Of a DNA stretch of 64,000 bases, positions 42,190 to 58,080 are shown one piece after another (position 1 is the first letter of the stretch; each line of letters opens with the position of its first letter). The notes beneath the pieces are model-generated. The model was not told the DNA's origin. It did no database searches and saw nothing but the letters and a program-made list of their open reading frames with translations. The stretch is taken from assembly GCA_022396035.1 (NCBI GenBank), contig JAIOXO010000008.1:1830-65829 (forward strand). The letters run 5' to 3'. The position numbers and the translations under genes were made by a program. This DNA comes from Actinomycetes bacterium (GTDB lineage: Bacteria; Actinomycetota; Humimicrobiia; Humimicrobiales; Humimicrobiaceae).

Positions 42190-43338
42190 GTGAATCTTGA
42201 GTTCGATAAGAATTACTATGCAGTTATAAGAGTAATCGGTATCGGTGGTGGAGGAAGTAATGCAGTTAACCGAATGATGGAGGATAACATAAATGGTTGT
42301 GAATTTATTGCTATAAATACTGATGCCCAGGCATTGATGATGTCTAATGCTGATAAAAAGATACTTATAGGAGGTTCCGGTCTGGGGGCTGGTTCAAATC
42401 CGGAAATAGGAAGAGTATCGGCAGAAAAATCCATAGACTCTATAAAAGAGGCGGTAAAGGATGCGGATATGGTATTTATAACCTGCGGAGAAGGTGGGGG
42501 AACAGGTACCGGAGCAGCACCGGTTATCGCTTCTGTAGCTAAGGAGATGGGATGCCTGACCGTAGCAGTAGTAACCAAGCCTTTTACTTTTGAAGGCGGC
42601 AAGAGAATGGTTACTGCTGAAGAGGGAATCAAGGAATTAAGCGGCAAGGTGGATACCCTGATAATCATCCCTAACGACAAGCTGCTGGAGATATCTGATG
42701 AAAATACTACTTTGCTAAATGCTTTTAAGCTGGCTGATGATGTCCTTAAAGCAGGTATAAGGGGAGTTACTGACCTGATAACTCTGCCCGGCCTTATAAA
42801 TCTGGATTTTGCGGATGTGAAAGCAGTCATAAAGGATGCTGGAAATGCATTGCTGGGCGATGGTGTGGCATCCGGTGAGAACAGGGCAATAAAAGCTGCA
42901 CAGAAAGCGATAAACAGTCCCCTGATAGAGGCTTCCATAGAAGGTGCCAAGGGCATATTGCTAAATATTTCTGGTGGCCCGGACCTTAAGCTGTTTGAAG
43001 TAAATGAAGCTGCTGAGATTATCAGGAATGCTTCCAGTTCGGATTCCAATATCATTTTTGGAGCGGTTATTGATGAAAACATGAATGAACAGATAAAGGT
43101 AACCATTATCGCTACCGGTTTCAGTGACAAAATAATTGAAACTGTGGGTAAGGGAAAGAAGGAAAAGGAAGAGAAAGAAAAGGAAGATACGGAAAAGGCT
43201 TTTGAAAAGGAATTTGTTTCTGAAGAGAAGAAACCCAGAGAGGAGAAAGAGGAGAAACCGGAAGCTGATGAATTTGAATCACTGAGTGATGATTATCTGG
43301 ATATACCAACATTTTTAAGAAAAGAAAAAGAAAAATAG
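42190..43338 (+). CDS. ftsZ: Cell division protein FtsZ
   Basis: GGGGSNA, NTD, GGGTGTG, NLDFAD and C-terminal LDIPTFLR. Confidence 0.98.
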   Translation: MNLEFDKNYYAVIRVIGIGGGGSNAVNRMMEDNINGCEFIAINTDAQALMMSNADKKILIGGSGLGAGSNPEIGRVSAEKSIDSIKEAVKDADMVFITCGEGGGTGTGAAPVIASVAKEMGCLTVAVVTKPFTFEGGKRMVTAEEGIKELSGKVDTLIIIPNDKLLEISDENTTLLNAFKLADDVLKAGIRGVTDLITLPGLINLDFADVKAVIKDAGNALLGDGVASGENRAIKAAQKAINSPLIEASIEGAKGILLNISGGPDLKLFEVNEAAEIIRNASSSDSNIIFGAVIDENMNEQIKVTIIATGFSDKIIETVGKGKKEKEEKEKEDTEKAFEKEFVSEEKKPREEKEEKPEADEFESLSDDYLDIPTFLRKEKEK

Positions 43339-55456: not shown

Positions 55457-55486
55457 TTGACAAATAATTAAAATTTGGATTAGAAT
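55457..55486 (+). promoter_or_regulatory. Putative sigma70 promoter immediately left of the IS
   Basis: TTGACA-18-TAGAAT; the predicted start site falls near the IS left end. Confidence 0.45.
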
Positions 55487-55541
55487 TATTAAACCTTTCT
55501 TTCCGCAGGTTAAAAACCCATTTTTTCCGAATTAATTTCAG

Positions 55542-57218
55542 CTACATCTCACTGAAAACCCTCCCCCAATACTGGTCCTCATCCATATCAAGAAGCCCAA
55601 GTATCATCTTCTGAATAGAGGAGAGGCTGTCTTTAAACTCTTTTACAACTTTACCATTTTTTAAGATTTTATACGAAGATATGCCGTCAAAATTATAGAA
55701 TATCCTGGAGGTAGTAGGATAGAATGATTTACGGTATTCAGGATAGATGGGCAAGGACTTAATGCCTTTTTCCTTCATGGCCATCCTTACCTTTCTCTCA
55801 ATTATACCCTGGATTATCAGTGCTACAAAGAACAGAAACATTATCCCTTCAACCCTTTCAATGTTTTTAAACAGTACGGGAGCAGCCTCATGCACACTTT
55901 TAAACTGGTTAAACCTTTTTTCCAGCCGGGGCTGGTATTTGTAGTAGTTTAGCACCTCCCTGGGGCCAATTGAGGTATCAGTAGATAGCAGGGGAAATAT
56001 CCCGTCAACCCTCCTCTGGCGGGCCAGCCTTTCTTTATCCTGCTCCCAGTATAGGGAGTAGTGGGTTAATGTCTCTATCCTGTATTCTGCAGCCGGCCCA
56101 GGCCTGCCCCTGCCCACCTTTTTGCTTTTCTTTTTTATCTTCCTTATGATATCTACATTGATAAAATCCCTGCACCTGTACCTTTTTAGGATGCTTTCTA
56201 CTGCTTTTCTTATCTGCTCTTTTTCTTTAAGCTCTCTTTTGTTCAGTCTGGGAGAAAGGCGGGTAAGTTCTTTTTCTGCCTTTTTTATCCTTTCCTGTCT
56301 CAGGACCCGGTCAAGTTTTCTCTTCTGGCTGGACAGGTACCAGTAGATCCTGTAGCCGCCCTCTTTAGTCCTATAGTCTCCTAAAAGAAGGCTGTAATAC
56401 TCATAACTGCCGGCAATTTGTTTCCTTAGGATCTGCTTCTTTTCCACCTTTTCTGCCAGCAGTTTTTCTTTAAAGGCCTTTGCCTCATTCCATGTATCGG
56501 GCATGGTGGTAATCACCCTGCCTCCGCCTGAGACTATGGCCGATAGATTCTTTTGGGTGCATACCTTGCAGTCTGCCACATAGATAAAGTCAGCCCTTCC
56601 AATAATACTCCTCAGGCACCTCCAGGTCTCTATGTGGGTAGTGTCATCAGTACGGTTTCCGGGGTATGTCTTGTAGTGAACCGGTACCGCCCCGTCTGAG
56701 GAGACAGTCAGGCTAAATACCAGCTGGGCTAAGTCAGGCCTATGGTCCTTGCTTACCCCCCTGGCCATCTTCAGCCCTGTCTTTGTTGTCCCCGGTATCT
56801 TTCCATAAGCCTTTACCGTGGTGGAATCATTGTGGACCCTTCCCGTATCCAGACCCACTTTTTTTATCATCCCTACCACAATCTCGGTCATAAGGGTTGC
56901 CCGGTCTGCGCTATACAGCTTATCCAGGGCTCTTGCGAACCTGTCGTCATTGAAGGCTCCTACCGTATCCTTATCCATACCGTGGCAGCCGGGGTCTATG
57001 TCTTTGACCCACCCGCCAAGCTCATATAAGGGTTGTCTTCCCAGGGTTATGTTCCATACCAGGAGCATAAGTGCATCTTCTGCAGAAGCTTTTTCATTTC
57101 CGTAAGAAGGGATGTGCTTTCCAAAAAGAAACTTAAGCCCTAAGAGATCCGAGGCCTGCTTGACGAGAGGAATACCGGATATATTATATCTTTTTAACTT
57201 TTCGGCATCCCTTGACAT
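55542..57218 (-). CDS. IS1634-family DDE transposase (intact)
   Basis: 558 aa. FNDDRFARALDKL, HNDSTT, GVSKDHRPDL.Q, YPGNRTD, VADCK and YKYQPRLEKRF. Confidence 0.92.
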   Translation of the reverse strand: MSRDAEKLKRYNISGIPLVKQASDLLGLKFLFGKHIPSYGNEKASAEDALMLLVWNITLGRQPLYELGGWVKDIDPGCHGMDKDTVGAFNDDRFARALDKLYSADRATLMTEIVVGMIKKVGLDTGRVHNDSTTVKAYGKIPGTTKTGLKMARGVSKDHRPDLAQLVFSLTVSSDGAVPVHYKTYPGNRTDDTTHIETWRCLRSIIGRADFIYVADCKVCTQKNLSAIVSGGGRVITTMPDTWNEAKAFKEKLLAEKVEKKQILRKQIAGSYEYYSLLLGDYRTKEGGYRIYWYLSSQKRKLDRVLRQERIKKAEKELTRLSPRLNKRELKEKEQIRKAVESILKRYRCRDFINVDIIRKIKKKSKKVGRGRPGPAAEYRIETLTHYSLYWEQDKERLARQRRVDGIFPLLSTDTSIGPREVLNYYKYQPRLEKRFNQFKSVHEAAPVLFKNIERVEGIMFLFFVALIIQGIIERKVRMAMKEKGIKSLPIYPEYRKSFYPTTSRIFYNFDGISSYKILKNGKVVKEFKDSLSSIQKMILGLLDMDEDQYWGRVFSEM

Positions 57219-57256
57219 CTTAACCTATATTATATATTATTGCGTTAAGATGTCAA
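57212..57256. promoter_or_regulatory. 13-bp perfect inverted repeat forming two overlapping divergent sigma70 promoters
   Basis: TTGACATCTTAAC-19-GTTAAGATGTCAA. Plus strand reads TTGACA-17-TATTAT; minus strand reads TTGACA-16-TATAAT. Confidence 0.8.
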
Positions 57257-57624
57257 CCTTAGATGAGATCAAAAAATTAGAAGATAAAAGGTCCAGGGCT
57301 TTGGACAGGATTCTCTCCATAAAGCTTATGGTGCCCGGCTCATATAATGAGGTGTACTGCAGGTGCGGTAAGAAAAACTGCTGGTGCAGTAGCGGCAAGG
57401 GGCACCCCTTTAGGCGCATAACCTTTTCTGAGGACGGAAAGCCCAAAACTAAGTCCATCTGTAAGGAAAATGTAGGATGGATAAAAAAAGTTACCCACAA
57501 TTACCGTCAGTTCAGAAAAGGCCAAAGAAAGATCAGGGAATATGAGAAGCGCTTAGCAAAGCTTTTGGATAAGTATTTAAAGGAAATTATAGTAAAAACC
57601 AGGAAGAAAAAAGAGTATAATTAA
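57250..57624 (+). CDS. DUF6788-like IS accessory protein (Cys/His zinc-binding)
   Basis: PGSYNEVYCRCGKKNCWC...GHP with a basic helical tail. Lies inside the TIRs; ATG at 57250. Confidence 0.75.
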   Translation: MSTLDEIKKLEDKRSRALDRILSIKLMVPGSYNEVYCRCGKKNCWCSSGKGHPFRRITFSEDGKPKTKSICKENVGWIKKVTHNYRQFRKGQRKIREYEKRLAKLLDKYLKEIIVKTRKKKEYN

Positions 57625-58080
57625 TTCAAGATTTTTGTGTTTTTAACCTGCGGAATGAAAGATAAACTATAAATTTAACAGTTAATTAGCAAATCTACAT
57701 TCTGTTTAGAAAGATATAAAACACTTGTAAAACAATTTTAAATTCTGTGTATCATAAAATTAGAGAAGTTCATTTTTATTTATTTGGTTGTTTCCTTTTA
57801 GTTCTTTGAAAAAATTATTATTTGCTATCAAAAATTAGCTTTTATAATAGCTTTATATATTTATTTCCCTCCAGGGGAAATATAAATAAAAAATTTATTT
57901 ATAACCTAGGCTATTAGGAGGTGGGTTTTAAAAGGTGTAGATTATCAAGTTGCAGTTGTAAAAGGAGGTGATCCGGCAAATAAATTATAGAGTTGTAATT
58001 TATAAATACCAATATATAGATATTATTTAACTGATGTTAATGATTTATTATTGTAAAAAGTAAGAAAGAGGTAATGAGCT

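Follow-up and report, generated by a model that had tools for sequence, protein, structure and literature searches.

A 45-bp split palindrome carrying both start codons and predicted overlapping promoters of a two-gene IS1634-family element, with DUF6788 as its candidate repressor

In the transposons Tn3 and gamma-delta (tnpA-res-tnpR) a transposase gene and a small accessory gene are divergently transcribed, the short intergenic region holds both promoters together with sites for the accessory protein, and that protein represses both genes. Here we describe a comparable arrangement in an insertion sequence (IS) located in a 64-kb window, by which we mean the whole stretch of DNA that was analysed (64,000 nt of contig JAIOXO010000008.1 from an Actinomycetes bacterium). 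The IS carries an IS1634-family transposase gene (tnp) and, divergent from it, a gene for a DUF6788 protein, and the two genes begin within a split palindrome of 45 bp (57212-57256). Our reading of this region, to which we give about an even chance of being correct as a whole, is that it comprises overlapping, near-leaderless bidirectional promoters and that DUF6788 binds the palindrome as an operator. The likeness to Tn3 and gamma-delta lies in the divergent two-gene transposon with its shared short control region. TnpR is, however, a serine recombinase with a helix-turn-helix (HTH), and res is made up of three subsites and also serves resolution, whereas the IS encodes a 124-aa Cys3-His protein without a match to a known fold, has one 45-bp split palindrome enclosing both start codons and has no evident role for recombination.

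The tetR-tetA regions of Tn10 and Tn1721 provide a second point of comparison. There too a mobile element has overlapping divergent promoters under palindromic operators and a repressor that controls itself and its neighbour, and the tetR mRNA of Tn1721 is leaderless. TetR differs in that it has an HTH, acts at two 19-bp operators and responds to an inducer; in our IS a near-leaderless start is predicted for both genes, the first two codons of each gene supply, on the complementary strand, the -35 hexamer of the other, and the half-sites are ~32 bp apart centre to centre. In IS10 and IS50 there is an inverted repeat (IR) with its 5' arm upstream of the native transcription start site (TSS) and its 3' arm over the transposase start, and only read-through transcripts fold. 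Those hairpins sequester the Shine-Dalgarno (SD) sequence and AUG of a single gene, whereas here one palindrome is shared by two divergent genes that lack an SD and would double as both promoters.

Two further bodies of work bear on the locus. Few leaderless genes are known in E. coli, Tn1721 being listed as one of their mobile-DNA sources, and in mycobacteria an RTG codon (R being A or G) at the TSS itself directs leaderless initiation (PMC4633059), which is why it matters whether the present transcripts have a leader of 2-5 nt or none at all. The bidirectional promoters of Warman and Grainger have a pseudo-symmetric, A+T-rich -10 region from which transcription diverges, with room for only one RNA polymerase to bind at a time; the classes described share a -10 element and have TSSs 18, 10 or 23 bp apart, and competition between polymerases is of consequence only where activity is high (PMC12825309). 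The two near-consensus promoters of the IS would be strongly active. In contrast to the described classes their -10 hexamers abut, their predicted TSSs are ~25-27 bp apart (close to, but outside, the known classes), both -35 hexamers are perfect consensus and the symmetry reaches 13 bp into both coding regions.

The arms of the palindrome form a 13-nt inverted repeat that is 100% complementary by repeat search (Table 1). ATGTCAA opens both genes, whose ATGs are 31 nt apart. In our promoter scan the minus strand reads TTGACA-16-TATAAT from 57256 to 57229 (12/12) and the plus strand TTGACA-17-TATTAT from 57212 to 57240 (11/12); these putative tnp and DUF6788 promoters are the top two sites within the IS, and their -10 hexamers abut without overlapping. 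When searched for with up to 3 mismatches, the composite pattern has one site in the window and none in 100 shuffles. A sequence-only reading of this DNA had described the perfect 13-bp repeat, the two ATGs in its arms, the TTGACA that each arm supplies to the opposite gene and the two promoters, and we recovered this arrangement in every detail. Because the IS has almost no non-coding DNA (the tnp stop codon is 4 nt from the left terminal IR and the DUF6788 stop codon falls within the right one), the 45-bp region is also the sole room for regulation. Judged by these sequence features, the case for reading the region as a pair of promoters is strong. A second promoter-like site on the plus strand (57160-57187), which would give DUF6788 a 56-nt leader, was discarded as its -35 hexamer is not conserved in relatives.

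A GGAGG-type SD sequence was looked for before both ATGs and none was found, as had been claimed; the 3-nt AGG that lies 5 nt before the tnp ATG is present in this copy only and is not kept in relatives. The further claim that both genes are leaderless survives in modified form. Predicted starts do fall near the ATGs. In all arm classes (see below), however, the A of each ATG is 9-12 nt past the best -10 hexamer, and since the usual start is the 7th or 8th nucleotide, a leader of 2-5 nt is more likely for both genes than a 5'-terminal AUG. The DUF6788 frame is open further upstream, to an ATG at 57112 (57112-57249 of the window, plus strand), which gives an open reading frame (ORF) of 170 aa, and upstream starts have been used in some public gene calls of relatives (MVKMS..., ...LDILT.IIYY.VKMS), the latter being the palindrome itself translated by gene callers that overshoot. 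Sequence conservation, together with the helix predicted at the N-terminus, favors 57250 as the real start.

Conservation of the palindrome in other elements that pair IS1634 with DUF6788 had been set beforehand as the check on this arrangement, and the check strongly supports it. We retrieved 103 loci, nearly all of them with a divergent IS1634 transposase and with called gene starts typically 31 nt apart. The palindrome is present in 89 loci, being perfect (13/13) in 72, altered by one mismatch in 14 and decayed in 3, and it is found in elements of Actinomycetota, Planctomycetes and candidate phyla radiation genomes assembled from metagenomes, whose proteins are as low as 39% identical. In an alignment of 55 distinct sequences the 45 bp are the most conserved stretch within +/-330 nt (majority fraction 0.93-0.95 and entropy 0.24-0.30 bits, against 0.55-0.90 and 0.47-1.50 bits for the flanking coding DNA), and the inner 6 bp of the arms are as conserved as the hexamers. 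For the first 79 loci we also asked for TTGACA followed by TANNNT at 16-18 nt, and found it in the tnp direction in 79/79 and in the DUF6788 direction in 75/79, with a perfect TATAAT in the tnp direction in most; promoter geometry is kept both ways across phyla. Such close agreement with the consensus is characteristic of promoters under tight repression. The gene starts are likewise kept: 151 of 188 family proteins begin with MS, a further 22 begin with MVKMS owing to an upstream start call, and the third residue is almost always encoded by an A-initial codon because ATGTCAA demands one.

With regard to distribution, the DUF6788 protein has 76 close relatives, and 449 were found at E <= 0.001 with a profile of divergent members. 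The few named relatives are from metagenome-assembled genomes of Actinomycetota, Planctomycetes and Peribacteraceae (candidate phyla radiation, CPR), and comparison of the DUF6788 profile with 1.84 billion representatives yielded 1,482 clusters at 50% identity. There was no match when DUF6788 proteins were compared with plasmids by tblastn, nor in one scan of viral contigs.

Some individual loci depart from the common pattern. In the clade of L073 (2148-2192) and L075 (1841-1884) the left arm reads TTGACTT and the tnp ATG in the arm is lost (AAG); the transposase alignment begins 7 nt further downstream in the tnp direction, and the right arm and DUF6788 start are retained. In a Planctomycetes locus (L082, 23-1732) the IS1634 transposase is interrupted by an unrelated DDE_Tnp_1 transposase gene, a nested IS insertion, and the left arm has decayed to TTGTCAT. 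A locus that resembled a DUF6788 cassette beside a different (rve-like) transposase (L060) proved to be a remnant in which the IS1634 tnp is cut to 20 codons.

It is the inner part of each arm that calls for an explanation beyond the promoters. The outer 7 bp are fully accounted for by dual coding, in which one strand supplies the -35 hexamer and its complement reads ATG TCA, whereas the inner 6 bp (CTTAAC/GTTAAG in the window) are not accounted for by RNA polymerase contacts. These 6 bp differ between clades and do so symmetrically, with compensatory double changes setting apart five perfect arm classes: CTTAAC/GTTAAG (59 perfect loci), CTGTAC/GTACAG (8; a type seen in L084-86 and L093-97), CTGAAC/GTTCAG (3), CTGCAC/GTGCAG (1) and CCTTAC/GTAAGG (1). 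Double changes occur at 3 of the 13 pairs, and the covariation score over 15 distinct arm pairs is 0.149, against 0.071 in shuffles, of which 0/500 reach 0.149. Other palindromes take the same place in more remote DUF6788 genes (profile E-values of 1e-13 to 1e-18), which are likewise arranged divergently to DUF4277 transposases: TTCTTATATGA/TCATATAAGAA in L101, TTGACATGTAACCTAT / ATAGGTTA..CATGTCAA in L102 and TGCCTG/CAGGCA in L103.

We favor the possibility that the inner 6 bp are kept symmetric because the split palindrome is a DUF6788 operator. This is the best supported mechanism for the symmetry, albeit one that, judged from sequence, we consider about as likely to be right as wrong. In the model that follows from it, the 45 bp would hold all the control sequences of this compact IS1634-family element with its two genes, and would consist of two fully overlapping, back-to-back sigma-70-type promoters, each TTGACA being the complement of the opposite gene's ATG TCA. 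Transcripts would have a leader of 2-5 nt or none at all, and no SD, and for this reason only the element's own promoters would give well-translated RNA, independent of the host anti-SD. DUF6788, a strongly basic protein of small size with a Cys3-His motif, would bind the two arms, which are separated by about three helical turns, and would then cover both -35 hexamers and both start sites, repressing its own gene and the transposase gene. We infer the TSSs, leaderless translation, RNA polymerase competition, and DUF6788 binding and repression from the sequence; that a palindromic site overlaps both predicted divergent promoters, as in a repressor-operator module, is observed. The region had earlier been called a switch with mutually exclusive transcription, a notion drawn from geometry; a repressor occupying both arms would silence the two promoters together instead of alternating between them.

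The DUF6788 protein is in some respects a plausible reader of this site. Its isoelectric point is 10.05, with 35 K/R in 124 aa, and across 146 sequences C39, C44 and H52 never vary and C46 is kept in at least 90%. The predicted structure (predicted local distance difference test score 92) has a helix at 3-22, strands at 31-37, 52-61 and 64-69 and a 48-residue helix at 72-119. Weak structural matches to the double-stranded RNA-binding domain, SRP9/14 and prefoldin share the alpha-beta3-alpha layout only (template-modelling score 0.2-0.3) and were not relied on. Searches of PHROGs and PADLOC with DUF6788 gave no match.

Circumstantial support for a cognate protein-site pair comes from two sequence comparisons. 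First, residue 37, which adjoins the Cys cluster, varies with pair 10 of the arm: where the pair is T:A the residue is Cys in 56/56 unique proteins, where it is G:C the residue is Arg in 9/9 unique proteins, and in the single CCTTAC element it is Leu. The contact between arginine and guanine is a classic one in base recognition. On the DUF6788 tree, which is short, the association takes 4 changes, and the transposase tree rejects a single clade of Arg-type elements (p-AU, the p-value of the approximately unbiased test, 0.00017). Second, when L069 (1962-3387) is compared with L095 (809-2233), nucleotide identity is 82-95% in tnp and 60-77% from ~40 nt left of the palindrome through DUF6788. We take this drop to mean that the palindrome, including the arm with the tnp start codon, was exchanged together with DUF6788 and apart from the transposase, and such mosaics would explain why Arg-type elements are split on the transposase tree. 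The transposase was also considered as the reader, through an IR-like sequence, as the IRs in the window hold GGTTAAAAAC, which resembles GTTAAG. The IRs are, however, unchanged in GTACAG or GTTCAG elements, and because terminal IRs do not covary with the arm class the transposase is not an obvious reader of the palindrome.

Several observations weigh against an operator bound by DUF6788. A single origin of Arg37 and G:C is not rejected on the DUF6788 tree (p-AU 0.53), and because the codon for residue 37 is only ~110 nt from the arm, the association may reflect one event and tight linkage. Arm spacing ranges from 17 to 20 nt between clades, and L087 (2463-2507), L088 and L089, an apparently intact element on three contigs of different samples, have a 1-nt insertion in the right arm (GTTCAGAATGTCAA) that forms a bulge just before the DUF6788 ATG; neither sits easily with a dimeric operator of rigid geometry. 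Orphan copies of the arms were absent from the window and from all 103 loci. Foldseek with the DUF6788 model gave no significant match among solved structures (PDB, best E 0.2) or viral ones (BFVD, best E 0.056), a sequence search of the PDB gave no match, and a Pfam scan of the protein detected no HTH or other DNA-binding domain. RNA runs containing the element itself were searched for and not found; the short metatranscriptome contigs of relatives (2 runs) include none spanning 57116-57304 and are uninformative on the TSSs. The proposal in the sequence-only reading that the palindrome is an operator for a Zn-binding accessory protein has circumstantial support from the compensatory arm changes, the residue 37 association and the cassette swap, but the protein model matches no known DNA-binding fold.

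A serious alternative would replace the operator part of our model only. Read-through transcripts of IS10 and IS50 sequester the transposase start signals, and by analogy the palindrome could act as RNA: a 13-bp stem would bury the start codon in transcripts that enter from beyond the element or come from its other half, whereas native transcripts, starting inside the 3' arm, could not fold, and external promoters would fail to switch on tnp or DUF6788. We consider this unlikely as the sole source of the symmetry, even though a hairpin that masks the start codon explains it about as well as an operator does; the two are not mutually exclusive, and a hairpin may coexist with the promoters as well. 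Several lines of evidence agree with it: (i) the RNA hairpin is predicted to fold at -17.2 kcal/mol for the plus strand (z -7.0) and at -16.4 kcal/mol for the minus strand (z -4.6), a stability matched by 0/200 shuffles, and variants of other arm classes fold at -20.4 and -28.2; (ii) given the predicted TSSs, each ATG lies in the 3' arm of its own sense transcript, the geometry seen in IS10 and IS50; (iii) pairing is preserved by the compensatory changes; (iv) an RNA stem would tolerate the 1-nt bulge of L087-89 and loops of 17-20 nt and (v) a host promoter-like site abutting the left terminal IR reads into the IS in this window. Against this, 10 of the 13 pairs have no double change across phyla, although a stem alone would permit covariation, and this absence fits sequence-specific reading better than a hairpin. 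In addition, non-wobble mismatches (A.A, G.A, U.U) are found in abundant intact elements, such as the one whose protein is present on 23 contigs (L098-100), and an analysis of wobble pairs among single-mismatch variants showed no strand bias in favor of an RNA stem. An internal AUG without an SD would already be translated poorly, making the need for a hairpin less obvious, and the association of residue 37 with pair 10 is not predicted.

It is also conceivable, but to our minds improbable, that the symmetry has no function of its own. In that case two copies of one compact promoter/start module would simply stand back to back, with each arm conserved on account of its own promoter and start codon and the arms homogenised by intramolecular template switching or gene conversion (quasi-palindrome correction), and DUF6788 would act otherwise, for example as a transposition cofactor. 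The dual coding of the outer 7 bp is consistent with this, as is the tolerance of single mismatches in 14 loci, and there is direct evidence of arm-to-arm events. L095 (1809-1853), L096 and L097 encode an identical DUF6788 protein (P0106) and have flanks that are the same in L096 and L097 and two bases different in L095, yet the 19-bp spacer of L096 (TATAATATATTATACTGAA) is exactly inverted relative to that of L095 and L097 (TTCAGTATAATATATTATA), between identical 13-bp arms. The inversion arose either by template switching at the palindrome or through flipping of the -10 region. Through such events the compensatory arm classes could arise in one step without selection, which likewise detracts from the operator. 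On the other side, the inner 6 bp have no known RNA polymerase contact and yet are conserved like the hexamers, the palindrome is perfect in 72 of 89 loci despite widely diverged coding DNA, remote subfamilies retain a palindrome at the same place with quite different arms, and neither the residue 37 association nor the cassette swap is predicted.

That the spacer flips in vivo as an invertible promoter switch, exchanging the -10 hexamers and shifting the balance between transposase and DUF6788 expression, is very improbable: the exact inversion between otherwise identical copies of different samples has been seen once, the -10 hexamers of the two orientations are alike and equally spaced (TATATT versus TATACT, 17 nt), no recombinase is known for the spacer, and contigs (the only data compared) from the source runs of the window's element showed no mixed orientation.

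Both genes are enclosed in one IS of 2.17 kb (55495-57661), the ends of which are uncertain by 1-2 nt; since the 43-nt terminal IRs flank both genes, we regard it as one two-gene element. The TTTCCGC core of the IRs recurs at the termini of related elements. The transposase scores 240 bits against NF033559 IS1634 (cut-off 100; E 5.5e-71), and tblastn alignments of relatives' transposases begin at residue 1, within the arm; the DUF6788 gene product scores 54.4 bits against PF20586 (cut-off 27.2). The IS is present in a single copy in the window, with variant copies among contigs of the source sample, and an IRR-like match at 42474 was dismissed as chance since it falls inside an FtsZ-like ORF. 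On one side the IS adjoins a cupin/aldehyde dehydrogenase operon and on the other an ABC-transporter binding-protein gene. The promoter-like site mentioned above (55457-55486, plus strand; TTGACA-18-TAGAAT, 11/12) ends 8 nt before the left terminal IR and points into the IS. It may be the promoter of the ABC-transporter operon downstream (58081 onwards), with the IS inserted at its start site. If so, host transcripts would cross the IS in the antisense direction for tnp and in the sense direction for DUF6788.

Table 1. Coordinates of the features of the IS, given as positions in the window
Feature	Position	Strand	Remarks
Left arm TTGACATCTTAAC	57212-57224		Plus strand: predicted -35 hexamer (57212-57217) of the DUF6788 promoter; minus strand: tnp start ATGTCAA and 6 nt upstream of the ATG
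Spacer CTATATTATATATTATTGC	57225-57243		19 nt, A+T-rich; abutting predicted -10 hexamers TATTAT 57235-57240 (plus) and TATAAT 57234-57229 (minus)
Right arm GTTAAGATGTCAA	57244-57256		Minus strand: predicted -35 hexamer (57256-57251) of the tnp promoter; plus strand: 6 nt upstream and DUF6788 start ATGTCAA
Transposase ORF (tnp), IS1634-family DDE	55542-57218	minus	558 aa, N-terminal DUF4277; ATG 57218-57216 inside the left arm
DUF6788 gene	57250-57624	plus	124 aa; ATG at 57250
Left terminal inverted repeat (IRL)	55495-55537		43-nt arm, 79% complementary to 57619-57661; conserved core TTTCCGC
Right terminal inverted repeat (IRR)	57619-57661		Overlaps the stop codon of the DUF6788 gene
Probable target-site duplication TAAAC	55490-55494 (left copy); 57663-57667 (right copy)		Right copy offset 1 base beyond IRR

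The control module is real and deeply conserved, and seems not to have been described before; our literature search found no paper mentioning DUF6788. More tentatively, and with less confidence than we have in the operator itself, we suggest that DUF6788 may be a new class of zinc-dependent, sequence-specific DNA-binding repressor. With the 45-bp split palindrome it would form a portable, host-independent cassette (consensus promoters, near-leaderless starts and an autoregulator), swapped whole between transposons and by now spread across bacterial phyla, and residue 37, by the zinc knuckle, would read arm pair 10 (Cys for T:A, Arg for G:C). If this is true, changes to one residue and one base pair could suffice to reprogram the specificity.

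For the large DUF6788 family (1,482 clusters) this locus offers a concrete, testable function and a defined 45-bp target together with a built-in prediction of specificity, residue 37 versus arm position 10. Two promoters, two translation starts and a regulatory site would here be packed into 45 bp, an arrangement that should work in Actinomycetota, Planctomycetes and CPR alike. If confirmed, it would introduce a new family of repressors, reveal a novel means by which transposons insulate the expression of their transposase and provide a very compact part for bidirectional expression.

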